A stretch of DNA of 64,000 bases from positions 172,078 through 236,077 of the forward strand of contig JAPLME010000006.1 in assembly GCA_026387175.1 (NCBI GenBank), read 5' to 3'. The notes under the pieces were generated by a model. The model was not told the origin of the DNA, made no database searches, and saw only the letters and a list, made by a program, of their open reading frames with translations. Source of the stretch: Candidatus Omnitrophota bacterium (GTDB lineage: Bacteria; Omnitrophota; Gorgyraeia; 2-01-FULL-45-10). This document shows positions 43,195 through 54,569 of this stretch, in pieces (positions within the stretch are counted from its first letter, which is position 1; every line of letters starts with the position of its first letter). The translations under genes and the position numbers were made by a program.

Positions 43195-44361
43195 TTAGAG
43201 TAATATGAGGAATGCAACTGATGAGATGACCGCCATGGCGGCGCCGTAGATGAAGGGCGCGGATGAACCGATATGTGTCCATAGGAGGCCGGCTATGAGG
43301 CTGGCGAAGAACGCGGCAAATCCTGTAATGCAGTAATAGAGCCCTATTGCGGTGCCCATTACCTCTTTGCCGACAACATCTGCTACGAAAGCCTTACTGA
43401 TACCGTCCGTCATGGCTATGTAGAAACCATATATAAAGAATAGCGGCCAGATCGTAACCTTGGTAACGTATGCGCCGAACCCTGTATAGACAAACGCAAA
43501 TATCAGATAACCGGCCACCATCACCGTCTTCCTAGAAAGACGGTCTGAAATGACCCCCGCGGGAAGCGAGAGCGCCGAGTATGAGATATTATAAACCACA
43601 TACGCGAGAATTATAACGCCCGTGGTCAGCCCGATATCTTTGGCGCGCATTATCAGAAAGGCGTCGCTCGAATTTCCTATGGCGAATATGGTAGATATAA
43701 AAATAAATTTCCAGAATGTCGGGGAGAATTTCCTGATATTTATCTTCAAAGGGATACCTTCACCATGCGCTGAATGAGGGCCCTCCTTAAGCCAGAATAT
43801 CAATATGCCCACGCCGGCGAGAGCCGGCACAAGAGCTATCAGAAAAATCGATCTCAGGTCATCTTTGCAAACATAGAGAAGCCAGAACGCGAGCAGGGGG
43901 CCGAGACACGCACCGATGGTATCCATGGCGCGATGAAACCCGAAGACCTTGCCTCTGTATTTGGCTTCGCAGGAGTCCGCTATCATCGCATCTCTCGGCG
44001 AAGTACGAACCCCCTTGCCTATGCGGTCCACTACTCTCGCCAGAAAGATAAAAGGCCATGAATATGCCAAAAAGAACAGTAATTTCCCCAGCGCCGATAG
44101 AGAATATCCCCATATAACAAACGGCTTCCTCTTTTCAAAGAGGTCCGAAATGTAGCCGGAGAACGCTTTCAACACACTTGCCACGGCTTCCGCGGCGCCC
44201 TCGATCAGGCCCAGTATCGACATCGGCGCGCCTAGAACTGAAGTGAGGAATATCGGGATTATCGGATATAACATCTCGCTTGAGATATCTGTGAGCAGGC
44301 TTGTTACGCTGAGGACAACTACATTTTTCTTTATGCCGGTGAAAGCGCGTGCAGGTTTCAT
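43195..44361 (-). CDS. MFS transporter
   Basis: 388 aa with 12 TM helices and MFS loop motifs (DRIGKGVRTSPRDAMIAD). Confidence 0.8.
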   Translation of the reverse strand: MKPARAFTGIKKNVVVLSVTSLLTDISSEMLYPIIPIFLTSVLGAPMSILGLIEGAAEAVASVLKAFSGYISDLFEKRKPFVIWGYSLSALGKLLFFLAYSWPFIFLARVVDRIGKGVRTSPRDAMIADSCEAKYRGKVFGFHRAMDTIGACLGPLLAFWLLYVCKDDLRSIFLIALVPALAGVGILIFWLKEGPHSAHGEGIPLKINIRKFSPTFWKFIFISTIFAIGNSSDAFLIMRAKDIGLTTGVIILAYVVYNISYSALSLPAGVISDRLSRKTVMVAGYLIFAFVYTGFGAYVTKVTIWPLFFIYGFYIAMTDGISKAFVADVVGKEVMGTAIGLYYCITGFAAFFASLIAGLLWTHIGSSAPFIYGAAMAVISSVAFLILL

Positions 44362-45386
44362 TTTATATGTTTGGTCTTGTAAGTATTCACTCTTACGTCA
44401 TATTCGTCTTCTATCTCGCCGATGATCTCCTCTACGAGATCTTCTAGAGTGACTATGCCTTGGACCTTGTCCTGGCTGTCGACTACAATGGCTATATGCG
44501 TATGTCCTTTTTGAAACTCTTTTAAGAGCTCGACGACCTTCTTCGATTCGTTGACGATCGTGGGGGGATATACTATATCCTGAAGAACAACAAGATCCTT
44601 GTTAGACGAGAGCATCAGCAGGTCTTTCATATTGATTATGCCGGATATATTATCCGGGCTGCCGCTGTAGACCGGTATCCTTGAGTAGCCCGACTCGAGG
44701 ACCTTGTTCAATATATCATCGATATTAGAGCTTGCGCTGATCGAAAATATATCTTTCTTCGGCGTCATCACATTCTTGACCACGGCTTCATGAAGAGCAA
44801 AAACTTTCGTGATCATGCTGTACTTCTCTTTTTGCAGGCTTCCCTCTTCCTGGCCTATCTTTATCATAGCCCTTATCTCTTCATCCGTAACCAGGGACGC
44901 CTTAGAAAGCGTTTTAGCTCTTATGGCCTTTAATATAGCATTTATGATCACCTCGAAGCCGATAACAAGCGGTGAGAATATTCTTATCAATAGCCGCATG
45001 GGCCGGGCGAAAAATAGCGACATTCTTTCGGAATAATTAGCCGCTATAGTCTTCGCGGTAACTTCGAATACTATTATAAGAAACGCGACTACGGCCGTAG
45101 AGACCACTATTTCCCATCCGCCCTCACCCATGAAACGTATCACTATGGCGGTCATAAGCACCGCTATCAGTGTACCAACGACACTGCTTGACACCAGAAT
45201 CGTGCTGAAGAAACGTTCCGGGGTCTCCAGTATCTTCAGAATGATCGCGGCGCGTCTTGAGCCTTCCGATGCCAGCCGTCTAAGCCTAAGGCGGCTCATA
45301 GATATTATAGAAATCTCTAATGCGGACGTAACAGCGGTCAGTATAAGCAGAAAAAGTATTATTATACTTTGCAGGAGTGCTTTCAT
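44358..45386 (-). CDS. CNNM/CorB-type protein (DUF21 TM domain plus CBS pair), a putative Mg2+/Co2+ efflux or homeostasis factor. It lacks the CorC C-terminal domain.
   Basis: N-terminal four-TM DUF21 domain followed by a tandem CBS pair. Confidence 0.75.
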   Translation of the reverse strand: MKALLQSIIILFLLILTAVTSALEISIISMSRLRLRRLASEGSRRAAIILKILETPERFFSTILVSSSVVGTLIAVLMTAIVIRFMGEGGWEIVVSTAVVAFLIIVFEVTAKTIAANYSERMSLFFARPMRLLIRIFSPLVIGFEVIINAILKAIRAKTLSKASLVTDEEIRAMIKIGQEEGSLQKEKYSMITKVFALHEAVVKNVMTPKKDIFSISASSNIDDILNKVLESGYSRIPVYSGSPDNISGIINMKDLLMLSSNKDLVVLQDIVYPPTIVNESKKVVELLKEFQKGHTHIAIVVDSQDKVQGIVTLEDLVEEIIGEIEDEYDVRVNTYKTKHIK

Positions 45387-45407
45387 AGTTATCAGTGTCC
45401 CTGCGCC

Positions 45408-46001
45408 TTACATGGCGGGCTTCACTATCCCTCCTGAAATAATAAGTTTCACGCCGTCTTCGACGGATATATTCAGCTCCGTTACGTCTTCTCTGGGCGC
45501 CAGTATGAGAAAACCCGTCAACGGACTCGGCGTGGTGGCTATAAATACATGCAGCAGATCGCGCCCGGTCTTATCATTGGCCTCCTTAAAACTCTCATTC
45601 GTTATAAAACCTACCGACCAGATCCCTTTCGACGGATACTGCACCAATACCACTTTTTTAAACGCCGGACTGTCCTTCGAGATGAAAGAGTCTACTATCT
45701 GCTTTGCCGCGGGGTAAATGTTGCGAATGAACGGAAACTTCAAGAACCAGCTTTCGAGCGCGCGTATTATCCTTTTGCCGAAGAAGTTGGCCGCGGTAAA
45801 GCCCACGGCGAAGACTATCAGGATGCTTATTATGATACCTACTCCGGGTATGGCGAAGCCCAGATACTGTTTTATGTAAAAATTAACCACCTTACCGAAT
45901 ATTCCGTCTATAAAACGGAAGATTATGAAAAGGAAATAGAGCGTGATGAATACCGGCAATGTTATCAGAAACCCTGTCGCGAGATAATGCCTTATCCTCA
46001 T
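45408..46001 (-). CDS. DUF502-family membrane protein
   Basis: 197 aa with two N-terminal TM helices and conserved FxxxPxxxxIY and GFI(T)NE motifs. Confidence 0.65.
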   Translation of the reverse strand: MRIRHYLATGFLITLPVFITLYFLFIIFRFIDGIFGKVVNFYIKQYLGFAIPGVGIIISILIVFAVGFTAANFFGKRIIRALESWFLKFPFIRNIYPAAKQIVDSFISKDSPAFKKVVLVQYPSKGIWSVGFITNESFKEANDKTGRDLLHVFIATTPSPLTGFLILAPREDVTELNISVEDGVKLIISGGIVKPAM

Positions 46002-46014
46002 AATGACCTTTCTT

Positions 46015-47289
46015 TTATTTAAATAATTTAACCAATGGAGATACTATCATCGGGATCAGAAGCAAAGCGGTAAGCGTTATAAGTATTACGGTAGTTCCCC
46101 ACCCAATCACGTTTTGAAACTTATTGTTCGTGTATTCACCCATCAGCCTCTTATTATTTACCATGAGTATCATGGATATAAGCACCACCGGCAATAACAT
46201 CGCGTTTAATACCTGCGACCATATTGTGATAGCTATAAGCGGCGCGTTGGGCATCAATATGATCAGGCATGAGATCACTATGATAAAAGCGAAAAGAGTA
46301 TAGAATTGCGGTGCTTCCTTCAGGCTCTTATTTATGCCTGCTTCGAAACCGAATGCTTCGCAGACATAGAATGCGGTAGCGAGCGGAAGGATGGTCGCCG
46401 AAAAGACCGACGCCACAAAGAGCCCGAACGCGAATAACTCCGAAGCGAACGCCCCGGCAAAAGGTTTAAGCGAAATAGCGGCGTCCTTTGCCTCATTTAT
46501 CACCACGCCGTTCACATGCAGCGTGGCGGCGCAAGCGACTATTATAAAAAATGCCACAACCACAGTGGCGGTACAGCCTATTATGACATCCCATACGACA
46601 AATTTGTATTCCTCTATCTTGAGGCCTTTCTCCATGACGGCGGACTGCATATAAAATTGCATCCATGGAGCTATCGTCGTGCCTATCACGCCCAGTACCA
46701 GACTTAAATATTCCTTATTGAAGCTTACGGTGGGCCTCGCAAAGCTTGTGGCTATCTGCCCCCAATTCGGCTTAGCAAGAACGGCGGATATGATATATGA
46801 TAAGAGGCAGAAACTGAAGAATAAAAATATTCTTTCGGATATCTTATAATTTCCCTTAACTACAAGTATCCACACTCCTATCGCGACTAAAGGAACGGAG
46901 ATATATTTGCTCACGCCGAATACCATCATGCTGCCTGCCACGCCGGCAAACTCCGTAGCCGTATTTCCTATATCGGCAATTATCAGGCCTACGAATATAA
47001 AAAATGTGATCTTGACCCCGAAGTTTTCTCTTATCAGGTCGGCCAGGCCCTTTCCTGTGACAATACCCATCCTGGCGTTCATCTCCTGCACGACCATCAA
47101 CGCTATGAACGACGGTATCAGTGTCCATAGAAGATTATACCCATACATGGCACCCGCAACCGAATATGTCGTTATACCGCCGGCGTCGTTATCGACACTG
47201 CCCGTTATTATGCCGGGGCCCAGTATGGCGGCGAATAGCGCCATATTTTGCCAAAAACTTCGCTTGATCAGTTTTCCGTTACCGTTCAC
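46015..47289 (-). CDS. Nramp-related transporter with a non-canonical metal site (NRMT-like)
   Basis: Nramp fold with 11 TM helices. TM1 reads GSVDNDAGG where canonical Nramp has DPGN, and TM6 reads TIAPWMQF where canonical has MPH. Confidence 0.75.
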   Translation of the reverse strand: MNGNGKLIKRSFWQNMALFAAILGPGIITGSVDNDAGGITTYSVAGAMYGYNLLWTLIPSFIALMVVQEMNARMGIVTGKGLADLIRENFGVKITFFIFVGLIIADIGNTATEFAGVAGSMMVFGVSKYISVPLVAIGVWILVVKGNYKISERIFLFFSFCLLSYIISAVLAKPNWGQIATSFARPTVSFNKEYLSLVLGVIGTTIAPWMQFYMQSAVMEKGLKIEEYKFVVWDVIIGCTATVVVAFFIIVACAATLHVNGVVINEAKDAAISLKPFAGAFASELFAFGLFVASVFSATILPLATAFYVCEAFGFEAGINKSLKEAPQFYTLFAFIIVISCLIILMPNAPLIAITIWSQVLNAMLLPVVLISMILMVNNKRLMGEYTNNKFQNVIGWGTTVILITLTALLLIPMIVSPLVKLFK

Positions 47290-47290
47290 T

Positions 47291-48619
47291 TCATAACCCT
47301 TTTGGTTTGGCAGGCCGTTTTCGCCATGCTATAGATATGACCTGGCTCAATATATCATCGATCGTAATAATGCCGTGCATAATCTTATTTTCATCTATCA
47401 CAGGTATAGCCGATACCTTGTACTTGTCCATAAAATACGCTATCTCTTTTGCGCTGTTATTCAGATATACATGGAGAGTCTGCTGAAAAGCCGTTTTCGA
47501 GATTTGATCCTTTGGGTCGGCAAATAAGAGCCTTCTGATAGTTGTGACGCCTTTCAAGTGGTTCTTCTCGTCTACAATATATATGTACGGCACCGTATCG
47601 TAATCTTTTGTATTCACCCTTATGTGTTCAATGGCGCTCTCGACCGGCGTAGTCTCCGGAAGAGATACAAATTCTGTCGTCATCAGGCCGCCCGCAGAAT
47701 CGCCGGAATAACCCAATAGGGTCGAGAGTTTCTTGGCGCGCGACGATTCGACTAGAGGCAATAGATTATTCACAATCCTGGGAGACAACCGCTCCAACAT
47801 ATCCGTAGCCTCATCGGTGGACATATTGCTCACTATCTGGGCCGCTTCTTTTTTATCGAGTTCTTTAAGCATGATATTCTGCTCTTCAAATTCAAGATTT
47901 TCAAATATCTTCGCCTTGGTCCTGACATCGAGCATTCTGAAAAGCGCCATCCTCTGGTTCGGGTTAAGGTCGAATATTATATCTCCGAGATCGACCGCCG
48001 GTATAGAGAGGATCTGCTTTTCCGACACGGACAGCTTCATGGTCATGCTGGCGGGATTTATCGATACCGGCTGCACGTATTTCCAGGAGATCAAGTCTGT
48101 CTCCTTAAGATATCTGGAGTTTTTATTCGCCAGTTTCACAAAAAAATCTATAAGCCTGTCCCAACCCAGCCTTCTAAATAACCCCCTAACACCTATATCG
48201 ACATGCGCTATTACCAGATCATGCTCAACCTTCAGGAGGTGAATATCATTGACGCGGCGCACCTTATGGTTAAACGTATCGACCACTTGCTGGTCCAGAA
48301 TATCGCGCTTTAACAGGAACTCGTAATCTTTTATCTCCGGCGAGAATTTCACATCATCTTTTTTTACGCTGAGCGTTATCTCTTTCGCCACCGATCCTAT
48401 ATTTGCCCATGGTATGCACCCATAGAGCCGGTTCACCGTACCTCTATATACTATAAGCTCTTCGGCTTTAGGGTAGATCTCCCCAATCTTTGAGCTGATG
48501 TCCCACACTCTGCCTATGTATGAGCCGTCAAATGCCGTGACATCCTTTTTCAGAAGGTCTGAAAAATTCACGAACATCTCCGCGGCCCGTATCTTCGCTT
48601 CGTTCAGGTCATTTATCAT
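47291..48619 (-). CDS. Soluble MgtE-N-domain plus CBS-pair protein, with an extra ~200-aa N-terminal domain and no transmembrane pore domain
   Basis: MgtE_N helical domain (…LFRMLDVRTKAKIFENL…EAAQIVSNMSTDEATDML) and a tandem CBS pair. The protein ends at ...AWRKRPAKPKGL with no TM helices. Its stop lies 2 nt from the Nramp-like start. Confidence 0.7.
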   Translation of the reverse strand: MINDLNEAKIRAAEMFVNFSDLLKKDVTAFDGSYIGRVWDISSKIGEIYPKAEELIVYRGTVNRLYGCIPWANIGSVAKEITLSVKKDDVKFSPEIKDYEFLLKRDILDQQVVDTFNHKVRRVNDIHLLKVEHDLVIAHVDIGVRGLFRRLGWDRLIDFFVKLANKNSRYLKETDLISWKYVQPVSINPASMTMKLSVSEKQILSIPAVDLGDIIFDLNPNQRMALFRMLDVRTKAKIFENLEFEEQNIMLKELDKKEAAQIVSNMSTDEATDMLERLSPRIVNNLLPLVESSRAKKLSTLLGYSGDSAGGLMTTEFVSLPETTPVESAIEHIRVNTKDYDTVPYIYIVDEKNHLKGVTTIRRLLFADPKDQISKTAFQQTLHVYLNNSAKEIAYFMDKYKVSAIPVIDENKIMHGIITIDDILSQVISIAWRKRPAKPKGL

Positions 48620-48626
48620 ATATTAC

Positions 48627-49049
48627 CTAATTCTTGACTGCCGCTACACTGACTTTCTGTATATTCAGCTCATTTATCACATCAAGCGCCTTTACCACAT
48701 TATTGAACCTGGCAGAACCGTCCACCTTCAAAACAACGCCAATGCTGTTATTCTCTTTCAATTTTGCCTCAAGAGCCGATTTAATATCGGAATCTTTAAC
48801 CTTATCTTCATTTATAAAATAATCACCATCTTTAGTGATAGTGAGCATGACCTTTTCGAATCCCTCCAGCGCTACTGCGGTGGATGCTTTCGGCAGTTTC
48901 ACCTCTATTTTCGACATCTTTACGGGATTGAACGTGTAGATCAGGCTGAAGGAGATAAAGAAAAAGATGAACATATTCATAACAATGTCCGTCATCGCGA
49001 CGGACTCGAGCGCTACAAGATAATCTTTTTTGCCTTTTATCGCGATCAT
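48627..49049 (-). CDS. exbD: ExbD/TolR-family protein
   Basis: 140 aa with a single N-terminal TM helix and a periplasmic ExbD fold. Confidence 0.8.
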   Translation of the reverse strand: MIAIKGKKDYLVALESVAMTDIVMNMFIFFFISFSLIYTFNPVKMSKIEVKLPKASTAVALEGFEKVMLTITKDGDYFINEDKVKDSDIKSALEAKLKENNSIGVVLKVDGSARFNNVVKALDVINELNIQKVSVAAVKN

Positions 49050-49663
49050 GTCGGGCGCTTCGCTTCGGCGATCGCCTCAACCAGCCGCATCGAGGAATCA
49101 CTCAGCTCGTATGAGATATATTTTATTCTTGAGATTATGAAATTGCATATGAGGTAAAACGGCACGGCTATGATGAGCCCGGCCGCCGTCGTTATCATAG
49201 CTTCATATATGCCCGCGGCCAGCTGGGATACGGTTATGTTGGAGCCGGCCTTCTCCCAGCTCACGAACGCTTTTATGAGGCCCGTTATCGTGCCCAGAAA
49301 TCCGAGAAGCGGCTCAATCCCTATTATCGATATCAGCCCGCCTATATATTTTTCGAGGCCGTTCACCTGAGCATTCCCAGCCCTTTCAAGCGTTTTCTCG
49401 ATCTCATGGGAGGCGAGGCCCCTCTTTTCGATGCCGGCCTTCAGGGTAACGGCTAACGGATACCGTATATTGTCCGAACAGAATCTAGCCGCGTCATCGA
49501 AACGTCCGGCGCGGACTTTAGCGATAACATCCTCCGTGAACTTTCCGGCGTCCATCCTGATCGCAAACAGCTGCCAGAGCTTATATATTATTATCGCAAG
49601 GCCGAGTATCGAGCCGAATATTATCGGTATCATAACCGGCCCGCCTTTTATTATCCAGATCAT
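49046..49663 (-). CDS. exbB: ExbB/TolQ/MotA-family proton channel
   Basis: 205 aa with three TM helices and a conserved C-terminal ...GFLGTITGLIKAF...EAMITTAAGLIIAVP. Confidence 0.8.
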   Translation of the reverse strand: MIWIIKGGPVMIPIIFGSILGLAIIIYKLWQLFAIRMDAGKFTEDVIAKVRAGRFDDAARFCSDNIRYPLAVTLKAGIEKRGLASHEIEKTLERAGNAQVNGLEKYIGGLISIIGIEPLLGFLGTITGLIKAFVSWEKAGSNITVSQLAAGIYEAMITTAAGLIIAVPFYLICNFIISRIKYISYELSDSSMRLVEAIAEAKRPT

Positions 49664-50310
49664 TTAGTCCCCTTATCGAATATCGCCTGGACAAGCATTA
49701 CCAATCCTATCAGCGATATTACTATTCCGCTTACTTTGGGCATGAGATGCTCGACTTTCTCGCCGAACTTGTGTTTTACGAATGTCAATATGCCGCCTAT
49801 CGCGAAAGCGAACGGCAGAAGCGATATCATCGTCCCAAAACTGAATGACGCCACAAGAAGCCCGCCGGCAAGCGCGCTCTTCGTCGACGCGGCCATAACG
49901 AGTATTGCCATCTCTATCGGGCACGGGGGCAGCCCTCTTATTATCCCGAATACGAGCATTGAAAGATCACCTTTAGCGGCGTTTAAACCTTTGGCATAGC
50001 AGTGCGATTCAAGCTTATGCGTATGGCTGAAGACCAACAGGCCGAACGCTACGGTGAATGAAGCAGACACTATCTCCAGCTGCTTCGAAAACCTGGCAAG
50101 GTACTGGGAGCCTACGTATCCCGCTATCACTCCGAGCGTCGTATCCGCTATCATCATCCCAAAGCCGTATAACATCACAAGAAATACTATTTTTCTCGTG
50201 TTCCTGCCTATTATTGTCGCATAAATACTCGCGACAGCCTTGTCTTCGCATGGTTCAAGCACATGCAGCAGGCCTATGATGAATGCCGATGTCAGCGTAA
50301 CGTCATTCAT
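49660..50310 (-). CDS. NicO/RcnA/UreH-like (DsbD_2-like) metal transporter family protein with Cys-substituted motifs
   Basis: 216 aa with six TM helices. The first half carries GLLHVLEPCEDK, resembling the HxLEPGHGK nickel/cobalt-transporter motif. The second half carries GLPPCPIEM. Confidence 0.5.
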   Translation of the reverse strand: MNDVTLTSAFIIGLLHVLEPCEDKAVASIYATIIGRNTRKIVFLVMLYGFGMMIADTTLGVIAGYVGSQYLARFSKQLEIVSASFTVAFGLLVFSHTHKLESHCYAKGLNAAKGDLSMLVFGIIRGLPPCPIEMAILVMAASTKSALAGGLLVASFSFGTMISLLPFAFAIGGILTFVKHKFGEKVEHLMPKVSGIVISLIGLVMLVQAIFDKGTK

Positions 50311-50313
50311 TAT

Positions 50314-50913
50314 TTAACCGGTTTTTTGGGAAGAGAAATACAGTATAGCATCCAGGATACCTTTGCGCATCATCATCACCGCTATCGCGGCAAGTAAAAG
50401 ATGCGCGATCTTTGACACGGCCTTGGAACCAGCTTTCCCCAGGACTTTTGATATAGCGGAGGCATAGGTAAATACGATCCACACTATGATCAGGTTCACA
50501 ACAAAAGATGAAATGGTAAAGAGCATACCGTACGAGTCGAGCATGATAACCATCGTGGTAAGCACCGCCGGGCCGGTAATTAAAGGGGTGCCTATCGGGA
50601 CCGCGCCCATGGTATCCGTTGACAGCCGGCGAAATTTCTCATGCTGGAGTAGGTCGCGGAGCGCTATGGCCAGGAGAACAAGCCCGCCGGCGATCTTAAA
50701 ATCGAATACCATGACCCCGAGTATCATGAATATCCACTTGCCTAAAAACAGAAATACTATACCTATCGCGAACGCGGTTATAATGGACTGATTGATGATA
50801 TTCCGCTTGTCTTTATTCTTCAGGTGCTCGGTAAACCCGATATACATCGGAAGTATACCGAGAGCGTCCATCGCGACGAATATAGGTATAAATGACAGAA
50901 GAAATAACCGCAT
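50314..50913 (-). CDS. MarC-family (UPF0056) membrane protein
   Basis: 199 aa with six TM helices and an N-terminal IPIFVAMDALGILP. Confidence 0.75.
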   Translation of the reverse strand: MRLFLLSFIPIFVAMDALGILPMYIGFTEHLKNKDKRNIINQSIITAFAIGIVFLFLGKWIFMILGVMVFDFKIAGGLVLLAIALRDLLQHEKFRRLSTDTMGAVPIGTPLITGPAVLTTMVIMLDSYGMLFTISSFVVNLIIVWIVFTYASAISKVLGKAGSKAVSKIAHLLLAAIAVMMMRKGILDAILYFSSQKTG

Positions 50914-50996
50914 ATCAGGGCCCTTTATATAATAATTATATCAAATTATATCATATAGCGACATAAAGACAAGGAAATTGGTATTTATAAAACAAT

Positions 50997-51299: not shown

Positions 51300-52961
51300 T
51301 TATGCAATAGAAATTTTCAAAAAATCCGGGATGGGTTTTTTCAGAAGCTTATATATATTCTTCAGATGGGTCCTATACAGTTTATCGAACGGATTGTCAT
51401 TGCCGGCATGGGCCTTACCGGCGTACCACCAGTTCCAGTCGCTTCCTTCGGCTATATACAGCTCGCGCCAGGCATCCACTATACTGGCGCCGTCCAATTT
51501 GGAGTTATTTTCAGCCTCTTTTGTGAATTTCATAAGATCCCTTCTCACTTTATTAAGGTAGTCCCACGACAGATTATCCTGTTCCTGCCCTATCCAGACA
51601 TCAAAGTTATGGTTTATCCACGATCCGGGAAATATCTTATTGATTGACCTCTTAGGGCTTTCTATATCCAGGAAACCGCTCACTGTAGTAGACCCGACCA
51701 GTTCCTGTTTATCAAGGTTGGCATAGAGCGTCTCAAAGAACAGCCTGCCATTGTCATCAAAATACTCCCATGCGTTCTCACCGTCCATAACTATGGTCAA
51801 CAACCCCCTGTCGGTATCGCGGCGCATCTCGTGGCCTATATTGTTGCAGTGGTTTATCAGGTCCCAGGCCGCCTCATCCTGGTTCCATGAGTTATAGTTG
51901 AAACTTATCATATCGGAGAGGTTCTTGTCCCTGAAGATCATCGCGATATTGCGCGAGCCGACCTTGTAATTATACGGACGGTATATCATCCGGCGATCAA
52001 ATCCTGATAATCCCTTACATTTTTTATCATACATAGAGAGGCTTTTAAAGAGTATATCCTCGTCGGTAGCCACCCAGTCTATGCCTTTTTTTATAAGGAT
52101 ATTCAGCATCTGGTCCGACACGCTGCCTTCGGACGGCCACATACCTCGGGGAGGAGCGCCAAACTGTTCCGTGTGATATTTTATCGCTTCTTCCACCTGC
52201 CATTCGGCGTCTTCCGGGTGCGAATACTTCTTCGGAAGAGGGTTATGAGGAAGCGAAACTTTCGCGACCGAAGTATCGCATATGAGCGGCAATATCGGAT
52301 GATAGAAAGGCGTGGTCGTGATCTCTATGCGGCCTTCGTCCTGTAATCTTTTATATAGCGGCAGGATCTGGGCCATTATCTCTTTCTGCTTCACCGTTAC
52401 ATATTCTTTATCGCTCTCGGTATAGTCCCGGCCTTTCCTAATGAGATCATTAAGCTGCATATCGTCATCGATAGATATGGAATGGAACCATGCCAGATTA
52501 AAGAGCACCTGCAGGTCCAGGAAGTCTTGTTTTGAAAATGTCCTTACCATCCTCTTAAGGATCGTTCCGGTGAGAGGCTTGACTCCCTTTTTTATTAAAA
52601 GTTCGGAGTATCTCTGATTTGGTTCGATAAACTGTTTGAAGTTGACCTTGAAGAAATTGTTCAGGATATATACTTTGTCTTCAAATGTGAGGAGGCTCGC
52701 CTTCTTTATGGTCAGGTCGAGATATGTGTCCGAGACGTCGTTTTGCACATAGTCGTTTATCTGTTCTATAAGCGATGGGACAAGATTGAATGTCACCTTG
52801 ATATCGTCAAAATTCTCGACGAGCCGGGCCATCGGAAAGTAATCTTTGATGCCGTGAAGCCTGACCCACGGCATAAGGTATTTATCGGTAAGGGGGTCCT
52901 TATAGAAGGGCTGATGCATGTGCCAAAGGAACGCGACCCCTAAGGTCTTATTAATGCTCAT
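51300..52961 (-). CDS. Glycoside hydrolase family 57 enzyme (amylopullulanase / 4-alpha-glucanotransferase-like)
   Basis: 553 aa, begins LWHMHQPFY, the GH57 N-terminal catalytic region. Confidence 0.8.
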   Translation of the reverse strand: MSINKTLGVAFLWHMHQPFYKDPLTDKYLMPWVRLHGIKDYFPMARLVENFDDIKVTFNLVPSLIEQINDYVQNDVSDTYLDLTIKKASLLTFEDKVYILNNFFKVNFKQFIEPNQRYSELLIKKGVKPLTGTILKRMVRTFSKQDFLDLQVLFNLAWFHSISIDDDMQLNDLIRKGRDYTESDKEYVTVKQKEIMAQILPLYKRLQDEGRIEITTTPFYHPILPLICDTSVAKVSLPHNPLPKKYSHPEDAEWQVEEAIKYHTEQFGAPPRGMWPSEGSVSDQMLNILIKKGIDWVATDEDILFKSLSMYDKKCKGLSGFDRRMIYRPYNYKVGSRNIAMIFRDKNLSDMISFNYNSWNQDEAAWDLINHCNNIGHEMRRDTDRGLLTIVMDGENAWEYFDDNGRLFFETLYANLDKQELVGSTTVSGFLDIESPKRSINKIFPGSWINHNFDVWIGQEQDNLSWDYLNKVRRDLMKFTKEAENNSKLDGASIVDAWRELYIAEGSDWNWWYAGKAHAGNDNPFDKLYRTHLKNIYKLLKKPIPDFLKISIA

Positions 52962-52979
52962 TGCCGGCCCTGATATATT

Positions 52980-54569
52980 CTAAGTGCAATAAACCGTATA
53001 GTCCACATTCGGAAATATATTATTCTTCCACTCGAGGCGCTTTAAATACTCTTCATCGAGGGAGCCTGATTTCACATCGTCATATAGATTGGTAAAATTC
53101 TCGGCATGGCCCCTGAAGCGCTCAACGGCATACGAGGAGTGCGAACCCGTCTTTATGATAAACGCCCAATCGCTCGACTGCGCCAGGAGAAGCTCTCTAG
53201 CCATCTGGTTCAGGGCTCTTGCGGCCAGACCCTTAGCGTGCCTGTTGGCATTCGCGATTTCGACCATACGCTCAACCATCTTGTTAAGATGCCTGTATAT
53301 CCAGTCATTGGAACCCTCAAGCCAAAATTCGCTGTAACCTTTATATCCCCAGCTGGAGAATGCCGGCTGCAGCACCTGATAACTCTTATACATCTTCATA
53401 TATTCTCCGGGAGTGGTAAGCGCCACCGTATTCTGGTCATACCGTATCTTCCTGATAAGGAAATCGAGCCACATAGGGCCCTCATACCACCAGTGGCCGT
53501 ATAGCTCCGCGTCATAAGGCGCGACCACTATCGGCTTCCTGTCGCCCATGGAATGCACCAGATGTTCTATCTGTTTCTCGCGGTTAAACATGAAATTGGC
53601 GGCGTGAGAGGATGCTGTATCGCGTGCCGCGTCGGGATTGTAAGGATGCTTATGGTTTGTGGTGCCGGTGATCTTGTAGTACTTAATGCCGGTGTTTATC
53701 CTGACTCCGTCAGCGTTTATATAGGGCCTTATGTAATTGTAGTCGAGATCGAAACCTATATCCCTGTAGAATTCCCTGTAATTATAATCGCCCGGATAAC
53801 CTTCCACCGCGCTCCATACGGACTTCGACGATTCGATATCCCTACCGTACACACCCACGCCGCTCTTTGTGAGATAGCCGCTGAATACTCCAAACCTCGG
53901 TCTGGGAGTACCGAACAATATTCCGTGGTTATCGACGAGAAAATATTTTACACCCTCCCTCTTCAGCGCCTCTTCATCGCCGGGCACATATCCACACTCG
54001 GGAAGCCATATGCCGGCCGTCTTTCTGCCAAACACCTTCTGATACATATCCGTGGCGGTCTTCACCTGGGCCCTCACCGAAGCGGCCCTATCTGCTTCCA
54101 TGAGAGGCAGATAGCCGTGCGTAGCGCAGCAGGTTATGACTTCCAGATTGCCCGTCTCCTGGAAATGCTTGAAGGCATTGACAAGGTTGCGGCCATACTG
54201 ATCAACAAATATACGACGCGCGTCGAGAAAGAGCTGATGATACATATGGGCGAGCCTGTTAAACTGCTCCTCCCACCTGGTCCTCTCTACCTCTTTTTCG
54301 GAAAGCTCTATCAGCTTCTCGATGTGTTTTAGATACTTCTCCTGCAGATGGCCGTCCATCAGCATCGCCATCAGCGTAGGAGAGAGCGATATTGTGAGCT
54401 TGTAACCGATCCCGTCCCTTTCCAGGCCCTGCAGCATCTTTATGAGAGGGATATAGGTTTCGGTAATGGCCTCAAACAGCCAGTCCTCTTCCAGGAAATC
54501 GGTGAACTCGGGGTGACGTACAAAAGGAAGGTGCGCGTGCAATACTATCGCAAGATAACCTTTCGCCAT
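52980..54569 (-). CDS. GH57-type 1,4-alpha-glucan branching enzyme
   Basis: 529 aa, begins LAIVLHAHLPFVRHPE. Length and architecture match GH57 branching enzymes. Confidence 0.8.
   Translation of the reverse strand: MAKGYLAIVLHAHLPFVRHPEFTDFLEEDWLFEAITETYIPLIKMLQGLERDGIGYKLTISLSPTLMAMLMDGHLQEKYLKHIEKLIELSEKEVERTRWEEQFNRLAHMYHQLFLDARRIFVDQYGRNLVNAFKHFQETGNLEVITCCATHGYLPLMEADRAASVRAQVKTATDMYQKVFGRKTAGIWLPECGYVPGDEEALKREGVKYFLVDNHGILFGTPRPRFGVFSGYLTKSGVGVYGRDIESSKSVWSAVEGYPGDYNYREFYRDIGFDLDYNYIRPYINADGVRINTGIKYYKITGTTNHKHPYNPDAARDTASSHAANFMFNREKQIEHLVHSMGDRKPIVVAPYDAELYGHWWYEGPMWLDFLIRKIRYDQNTVALTTPGEYMKMYKSYQVLQPAFSSWGYKGYSEFWLEGSNDWIYRHLNKMVERMVEIANANRHAKGLAARALNQMARELLLAQSSDWAFIIKTGSHSSYAVERFRGHAENFTNLYDDVKSGSLDEEYLKRLEWKNNIFPNVDYTVYCT

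Follow-up and report, generated by a model that had tools for sequence, protein, structure and literature searches.

Why should a gene for the cytoplasmic half of an MgtE-type Mg2+ channel lie directly before a gene for a transporter of an unrelated family? This question is raised by two adjoining open reading frames (ORFs) in a 64,000-nucleotide (nt) stretch of a Candidatus Omnitrophota genome (contig JAPLME010000006.1), which was analysed as a whole and is referred to below as the window. Both are present on the minus strand in the ORF list of the window: 47291..48619 encodes a soluble, MgtE-like protein of 442 amino acids (aa), here called the partner, and 46015..47289 encodes a 424-aa Nramp-related Mg2+ transporter (NRMT) with a GTG start. 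An earlier note on this DNA, made from the letters of the sequence, had proposed that the regulatory module of MgtE had been uncoupled from its own pore and joined, as a separate polypeptide, to an NRMT-like permease in an undescribed partnership. The parts were recognized correctly in that note. Their pairing, in contrast, had already been published: the locus is a representative, from Omnitrophota, of the nrmT operon type described by Shin et al. in 2014 (PLoS Genet; PMC4072509). The identity of the parts and their membership of this known operon type can be taken as close to certain. We therefore set out the parts and their conservation, and then weigh what the partner may do to the transporter.

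The transporter and its soluble partner

The product of 46015..47289 matches the Pfam Nramp family (PF01566) with 322.7 bits over profile positions 1-356 of 357 and has the Nramp fold over its full length. Its best solved structure is EleNRMT from Eggerthella lenta (7qia; E=2e-109, 369 bits), to which it is 46% identical over the full length, as compared to 102 bits or less for DraNramp, ScaDMT and EcoDMT. The metal-site motifs are common to the two NRMTs (for EleNRMT, structures 7qia, 7qic, 7qji and 7qjj). Transmembrane helix (TM) 1 carries D35-A36-G37-G38 (47176..47187, minus strand), identical to D55-A56-G57-G58 of EleNRMT, where canonical Nramps read D-P-G-N. From alignment and translation, TM6 carries T204-T205-I206-A207-P208-W209 (46663..46680, minus strand), with T204, in place of a canonical Ala, equivalent to T224 of EleNRMT, A207 in place of the canonical Met and W209 in place of the first His, so that the altered D-A-G-G and A-P-W motifs reported in the earlier note stand on proper alignment, in place of D-P-G-N and M-P-H. 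The longer strings NDAGG in TM1 and GTTIAPWM in TM6 are likewise identical in the window NRMT and EleNRMT.

Published work on EleNRMT defines what such a site should contain (Ramanadane et al. 2022, eLife; PMC8806188). The NRMT signature includes an Asn-to-Gly exchange (Gly58) next to the universally conserved Asp55; an Ala replaces the soft-ligand Met, a Trp and a non-His residue replace the two proton-pathway histidines, Glu133 and Gln379 are retained, and the hydroxyl of Thr224 is needed for Mg2+ transport (PMC8806188). All of these residues have their counterparts here, with D35, G38, T204, A207, W209, E113 and Q359 matching D55, G58, T224, A227, W229, E133 and Q379 of EleNRMT. W209 and M214 occupy both proton-pathway His positions of α6b, the second of which is Met in the window and Asn in EleNRMT, both being non-protonatable, and E113 (α3) and Q359 (α10) are retained. 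By every sequence criterion tested, the transporter thus belongs to the NRMT clade, as the earlier note had suspected. EleNRMT carries Mg2+ and Mn2+, and not Ca2+, without H+ coupling; it is a monomer, works alone in proteoliposomes and was studied by itself in a paper that mentions no partner (PMC8806188). By analogy to EleNRMT, the window NRMT would import Mg2+ without H+ coupling.

In order, the partner comprises a probable PRC barrel, a PRC-like domain, MgtE_N, two CBS domains and a short basic tail. In the Pfam scan, MgtE_N was matched at aa 208-305 (75.8 bits) and CBS twice, up to about aa 430 (61.7 bits), and no match to the MgtE membrane domain (PF01769) was found. The NCBIfam mgtE model TIGR00400 is matched at profile positions 24-254 of 450 only (169.6 bits vs. 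a cut-off of 232.75), i.e. over its cytoplasmic half. With the membrane half absent, the partner is not an MgtE channel, and since it ends 12 residues after CBS2 and its stop codon is separated from the GTG start of the NRMT gene by 1 nt, a hidden pore domain could not be accommodated. The description of 47291..48619 in the earlier note as MgtE_N plus a CBS pair without a pore, abutting an Nramp-fold transporter, is borne out in both respects.

Structure prediction agrees with this architecture. The AlphaFold2 model of the partner (mean pLDDT 75) comprises two beta-rich domains (~aa 16-83 and 100-185), followed by a ten-helix MgtE_N domain (aa 205-305; 47705..48007, minus strand) and a CBS pair (aa 310-430; 47330..47692, minus strand), with a last helix at aa 420-433 and a disordered tail. 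The top Foldseek matches are MgtE cytoplasmic domains (8gpv, 2oux, 2zy9, 2yvy; E ~1e-17), and the fold of N domain and CBS pair is common to the partner and the MgtE of Thermus thermophilus (TtMgtE; 2yvy and 2zy9). A length of ~440 aa is kept in more than 100 partner homologues at 64-91% identity. One further entry (P0001), annotated as 'Candidatus Omnitrophica CBS domain-containing protein', matches the window partner with 100% identity.

Conservation and origin of the pair

A scan with an NRMT alignment, taking one genome per species, matched at least 598 genomes, of which the best 80 loci were analysed using hidden Markov models based on the proteins of the window and on relatives of these. 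These loci represent the sub-clade nearest to the query (52-80% identity, best tblastn segment), to which the following fractions apply, and come from Omnitrophota, Bacteroidota, Ignavibacteriota, Bacillota, Spirochaetota, Acidobacteriota, Nitrospirota, deltaproteobacterial lineages, Binatia and one Methanocellaceae archaeon. In 69 of the 80, a partner gene encoding the N-terminal module plus MgtE_N-CBS lies directly upstream of the NRMT gene on the same strand, at a median gap of 11 nt (61 of the 69 within -60 to +40 nt). The remaining 11 comprise four loci cut by a contig end, one with the partner elsewhere in the locus and six with no partner. In locus L078, the partner gene lies downstream on the opposite strand, and several of the partner-less loci stem from Nitrospirota (Magnetobacterium-like) genomes. 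The adjacency of the two genes is far beyond chance, and its conservation across phyla makes a functional partnership of partner and NRMT very likely. The earlier note had staked its reading on this adjacency being kept in related genomes, as is the case here.

The pairing has a published precedent. Shin et al., who defined NrmT, reported that most nrmT genes have a gene for an MgtE cytoplasmic domain next to them, that an M-box often controls the joint transcription of this MgtE-like gene and nrmT and that the MgtE-like gene is split in two in Clostridium acetobutylicum; they speculated on cytoplasmic feedback regulation or metal-chaperone activity (PMC4072509). The inference drawn in the earlier note therefore coincides with a published hypothesis. 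The operons of C. acetobutylicum (Ca_c0685) and Acidobacterium capsulatum (Acp2976/Acp2977) contain the same two genes in the same order as the window. Later work on the partner was not found in the searchable literature since 2014, with subscription-only papers outside its coverage.

In ten of the 11 Bacillota loci, the M-box Mg2+ riboswitch (RF00380; 91-151 bits) is found directly upstream of the partner gene, and the NRMTs of these loci are 55-74% identical to the window NRMT (best tblastn segment). This riboswitch in the Bacillota relatives supports a role of the pair in Mg2+ handling. No Rfam family reached threshold anywhere in the window; the M-box was thus not found, and the window pair is not under an M-box riboswitch. 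As the A. capsulatum operon likewise is reported without one (PMC4072509), the M-box is a frequent, not a strictly defining, feature of the nrmT operon type. Compared with the published operons, the window pair differs in its Candidatus Omnitrophota host, in lacking the M-box and in its position within a cluster of nine genes, where it is preceded by ExbB/ExbD and followed by DUF502, CorB and MFS genes.

What sets the partner apart from the cytoplasmic portion of MgtE is its N-terminal half. A first PRC-barrel domain (aa 16-90; 48350..48574, minus strand) is indicated by Pfam matches in relatives and an all-beta AlphaFold2 structure (pLDDT 73-90), and is followed by a second beta domain (aa 100-185; 48065..48322, minus strand). 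The earlier note had offered a PRC barrel as one candidate for the first ~200 aa. This assignment holds for the partner family, with 9 of 10 diverse NRMT-linked relatives passing the Pfam PRC cut-off and 4 of the 10 showing two PRC stretches, and is borderline for the window sequence alone, which scores a sub-threshold 16.7 bits against PF05239 (cut-off 21.2). An AlphaFold2 model of aa 1-200 alone, computed from a 15-sequence alignment, is of low confidence (pLDDT 59); its top fold matches are all PRC barrels (8onw, 1pm3, 3htr, RimM and the reaction-centre H subunit), with weak E-values of 1.5e-3 or worse. Given the poor quality of this model, the PRC assignment leans mainly on the Pfam matches in relatives.

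The second beta domain is probably a duplicated PRC barrel: aligning the profiles of the two domains with hhalign brought them in register on the PRC motif (E=1.8e-4, probability 48%). It is also better conserved across phyla than any other region of the partner, with the motif LDxQ(I/V)VDxxGxK(V)xRVNDL. Its mean identity to the window partner over 70 partners is 38%, as compared to 18% for the first PRC domain, 30% for MgtE_N and 29% for the CBS pair. A sensitive search with aa 1-200 retrieved 903 clusters at 50% identity; in nearly all of them, this module forms the N-terminal part of a protein of 415-450 aa. We found no discussion of the PRC-like domain of the partner in the literature searched, nor a mention of a PRC-barrel N-terminal half in the accessible text of Shin et al. 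2014.

The same module occurs on complete channels. P0203 (602 aa) and P0227 (593 aa) are full-length MgtE channels in which an N-terminal module like partner aa 1-200 (E ~1e-15 to 1e-17) is followed by MgtE_N, a CBS pair and the MgtE membrane domain (PF01769); P0227 passes the Pfam PRC cut-off and P0203 does not. The existence of such PRC-bearing channels makes the partner look like a pore-less derivative, and the most likely origin of the partner, on sequence grounds, is a PRC-bearing MgtE subfamily from which the membrane domain was lost, with P0203 and P0227 as likely representatives of the ancestral state. These two proteins keep both the membrane domain and the acidic plug helix, whereas the partner has neither. 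Relative to MgtE in general, it lacks the pore, carries a basic tail in place of the acidic plug and has ~190 extra N-terminal residues of PRC type. In the literature searched, we found no discussion of this PRC-bearing subfamily and no paper containing both 'PRC-barrel' and 'MgtE', subscription-only papers being outside the coverage.

Proposed regulation of the transporter by its partner

The metal sites of the partner were compared with those of TtMgtE, whose site definitions and gating role were taken from PMC5882242, by mapping residues over 71 partners by alignment. Two sites are retained. For Mg4, D91 of TtMgtE corresponds to D269 in the MgtE_N domain (Asp in 64 of the 71 partners) and D247 to D422 in the CBS pair (Asp in 66), and for Mg6, D95 corresponds to D273 in MgtE_N, which is Asp in all 71. 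The C-terminal tail, AWRKRPAKPKGL (47294..47329, minus strand), sits where MgtE has its acidic plug helix, which carries E255, E258 and D259 and contacts the pore. This tail is net positive in 60 of the 71 partners (mean +3), whereas the equivalent segment has a charge of -3 in TtMgtE and of -3 in P0203 and P0227.

From these features, a mechanism can be proposed. The NRMT would import Mg2+, most likely, and probably also Mn2+, down the membrane potential and without proton coupling, as EleNRMT does. The partner would bind cytoplasmic Mg2+ at the acidic sites bridging its N and CBS domains (D269/D422 of Mg4 and D273 of Mg6) and change its conformation in an MgtE-like manner. Docked on the cytoplasmic face of the NRMT, it would then slow transport once Mg2+ is sufficient, thereby braking in trans an importer that is otherwise uncoupled. 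Candidates for docking elements are the PRC barrels and the basic tail at the C-terminus, and we speculate that charge reversal and the second PRC-like domain serve docking to the NRMT or to the membrane. An importer that is uncoupled and driven by the membrane potential plausibly needs a fast brake besides control of transcription, by the same logic as in the gating of MgtE and CorA.

TrkA-TrkH and KtrA-KtrB are two-component transporters with a separate cytoplasmic ligand-sensing subunit. They offer an analogy only, in that a soluble ligand-binding regulator, encoded beside a membrane transporter, gates it in trans. Their regulators form RCK/NAD-binding rings rather than a PRC-MgtE_N-CBS chain, folds and ligands are unrelated, and the complex of partner and NRMT is a putative one. 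As a whole, the explanation of the locus as an nrmT operon with a pore-less, MgtE-derived partner that acts as a Mg2+ brake on the NRMT has, in our judgement, slightly better than an even chance of being right. The gating step taken by itself, in which the partner brakes the NRMT on Mg2+, comes out at about even or just short of it. That the partner is a detachable, trans-acting Mg2+ gate which docks on the LeuT-fold carrier via its second PRC-like domain and basic tail is a more tentative proposal, with the balance tipping somewhat against it.

Several observations weigh against a Mg2+ brake. Among the metal sites, acidic residues are lost in the window partner at Mg7 (TtMgtE E59 to K237) and at Mg5 (D226 to K401 and D250 to S425), the partner family often keeping acidic residues at two of these three positions, and sites Mg2 and Mg3 of the plug helix are without a counterpart. 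The ATP site of TtMgtE is not conserved either: the equivalents of Y170 and R187 are kept and those of D188, N203 and F227 are not, with N203 replaced by F378 and F227 by V402 (mostly Leu in the family). With the ATP-stacking Phe and the D188 and N203 equivalents lost, ATP sensing of the TtMgtE type by the partner is not supported. At the level of genes, no fusion of the N-terminal module to an Nramp domain, the Rosetta-stone arrangement, was found among the best 150 clusters carrying the module (longest protein, 643 aa), and six of the 80 NRMT loci have no partner in their flanks (L055, L062, L065, L073, L074 and L079).

Experiments on relatives point the same way. NRMTs are functional in the absence of the partner, in living cells as well as in liposomes (PMC4072509, PMC8806188), and in the sole test published, co-expression of A. 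capsulatum Acp2976 and Acp2977 in a Bacillus subtilis Mg2+-transport mutant is reported to have given no added rescue (PMC4072509). This latter result is weak evidence, because a negative regulator is not expected to improve rescue. The NrmT of A. capsulatum, whose operon includes a partner and lacks an M-box, fully rescued Mn2+ transport and only partly that of Mg2+ (PMC4072509); as this transporter behaved mainly as a Mn2+ importer, the sensed ion may not always be Mg2+. Finally, both the complex of partner and NRMT and its regulation are what we infer from sequence and genes.

Of the competing explanations, the one that survives best, unlikely as we consider it, is that the partner is a metal chaperone or buffer, which would pass on or take up the imported ion where the NRMT opens to the cytoplasm, or that it helps the NRMT to fold, assemble or stay stable, in either case without Mg2+-dependent inhibition. 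Its conserved acidic sites suit either kind of ion binding, and the tight translational coupling of the two genes fits any stoichiometric partner. However, no chaperones are known to be required for Mg2+, which is millimolar in the cytoplasm, and NRMTs fold and transport in the absence of the partner. Metal-chaperone activity is the alternative named by Shin et al. (PMC4072509); the module is, on the other side, homologous to a domain with a documented gating role (PMC5882242).

It is less probable still that the partner responds to Mg2+ by regulating a different target via its PRC barrels, and that its linkage to nrmT reflects mere co-expression under Mg2+ demand. PRC barrels are protein-protein adaptors in RimM, the reaction-centre H subunit and archaeal CdpB proteins, and ribosome-associated or other membrane proteins are examples of such targets. 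The PRC module is also present on full-length MgtE channels, which have no need to dock to another transporter; this and the strong conservation of the second beta domain would fit the explanation as well. However, the sole consistent neighbour of the partner gene across phyla is nrmT, usually a few nt away or overlapping.

Of similarly low probability is a pair that serves in this organism primarily as importer and sensor of Mn2+, a transition metal, rather than of Mg2+. The reported preference of the A. capsulatum NrmT for Mn2+ (PMC4072509), the transport of Mn2+ by EleNRMT as well (PMC8806188) and the lack of an M-box in the window all agree with this. Against it, T204, the equivalent of T224, and the whole EleNRMT site are present in the window NRMT, its Bacillota relatives are under Mg2+ riboswitches and a homologue of CorB-type Mg2+ exporters is encoded in the same operon. 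A broken mgtE without a function of its own, due to frameshift, truncation or assembly artefact, is effectively excluded by the conservation data, for although only the N-terminal half of the mgtE model is matched, the 1 nt to the next gene is too little for a membrane domain, a different, basic tail has arisen at the C-terminus, and length and architecture recur in more than 100 homologues, in ~900 clusters and beside the NRMT in 69 genomes; the cryptic pore or frameshift for which the earlier note had allowed is thereby rejected.

The surrounding gene cluster and the place of the partner family

The pair is embedded in a cluster of nine genes on the minus strand (43195..50913), with gaps of -4 to +21 nt, in the order MarC, DsbD_2, ExbB, ExbD, partner, NRMT, DUF502, CorB-type CNNM and MFS. 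Upstream of the partner, Pfam matches identify MarC (50314..50913), DsbD_2 (49660..50310), ExbB (49046..49663) and ExbD (48627..49049), which are spaced by -4 to +7 nt (48627..50913), ExbD ending 7 nt before the partner ATG. The ExbB/ExbD pair (MotA/TolQ - ExbD/TolR; 48627..49663) thus adjoins the partner gene; no TonB- or TolA-like gene is adjacent to it, and such a pair is also found in the related contig L001 (3285..4324). The best promoter-like site lies directly upstream of marC (50945..50972, minus strand), with TTGTCT, a 16-nt spacer and a TG-extended TATAAT, matching at 10 of 12 positions. The promoter scan overall returned no more sites than in shuffled sequence, and this site is only suggestive as a plausible start of the nine-gene unit. 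Further upstream, two ORFs of 553 and 529 aa, both resembling glycoside hydrolase family 57, adjoin each other (51300..54569, minus strand); this pair (Glyco_hydro_57) is syntenic in L001.

Downstream of the NRMT gene follow a DUF502 membrane protein (45408..46001; PF04367, 108 bits) and a CorB-type CNNM protein (44358..45386). The latter consists of a DUF21/CNNM membrane domain followed by a CBS pair (Pfam CNNM 145 bits, CBS 67 bits), without a CorC_HlyC C-terminal domain, and its best solved structure is the archaeal MtCorB (7m1t; E=5.9e-47); by homology, it is a predicted Mg2+ exporter. For one and the same ion, the unit is predicted to encode both an importer (NRMT) and an exporter (CorB). 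The cluster closes with an MFS transporter gene (43195..44361; MFS_1, 147 bits), which overlaps corB by 4 nt and is separated from rluA by a 289-nt gap.

The DUF502 and CNNM/CorB-like genes that the earlier note placed in the same operon were confirmed by Pfam and structure matches. Its suggestion of a Mg2+-homeostasis island stands for part of the phylum only: the pair is followed by DUF502 and CorB in three related arrangements among Omnitrophota, the window included, and these two genes are absent from other Omnitrophota loci (L003, L005 and L006) and from all other sampled phyla. A general Mg2+ island of NRMT, CorB and DUF502 is therefore rejected, as the grouping is not conserved outside this subset of Omnitrophota. 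Within the subset, DUF502 and the CorB-type gene adjoin in all three arrangements seen (window, 44358..46001; L001, 12441..14038), overlapping by 4 nt in L001 and further related contigs and lying 21 nt apart in the window. The two may form a functional pair, which would concern a DUF502 family that is uncharacterised. Other insertions vary among these relatives. In L001 (4358..7832) and further contigs, TrkA-TrkA-TrkH genes for K+ uptake are inserted directly upstream of the partner gene, beside a gene for a ~160-aa protein without a Pfam match, and in L001, a CBS-only 152-aa protein and a CitMHS transporter are encoded between NRMT and DUF502. The region seems to gather ion-transport genes in this Omnitrophota lineage.

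NRMTs make up the fourth class of Mg2+ importers in bacteria and differ from classical Nramps in having no proton coupling. As their regulator, the conserved MgtE-like partner is an obvious candidate. The window itself adds no new principle, and the survey around it sharpens the question of the partner's role. What is added here to the operon type known since 2014 is the PRC module, the PRC-bearing full-length MgtE channels, the retained Mg4 and Mg6 sites, the basic tail and the pattern of M-box occurrence. The partner emerges as a large cross-phylum family (~900 clusters at 50% identity) of fixed four-module architecture, and its architecture and residues point to specific mutants and truncations. 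As to the detachable gate, the idea dates from 2014, while a PRC docking module and a charge-reversed tail would be new. If true, this would be the first demonstration that an MgtE gating module can regulate an unrelated transporter as a separate subunit, and would explain how an uncoupled Mg2+ importer avoids overloading the cell.

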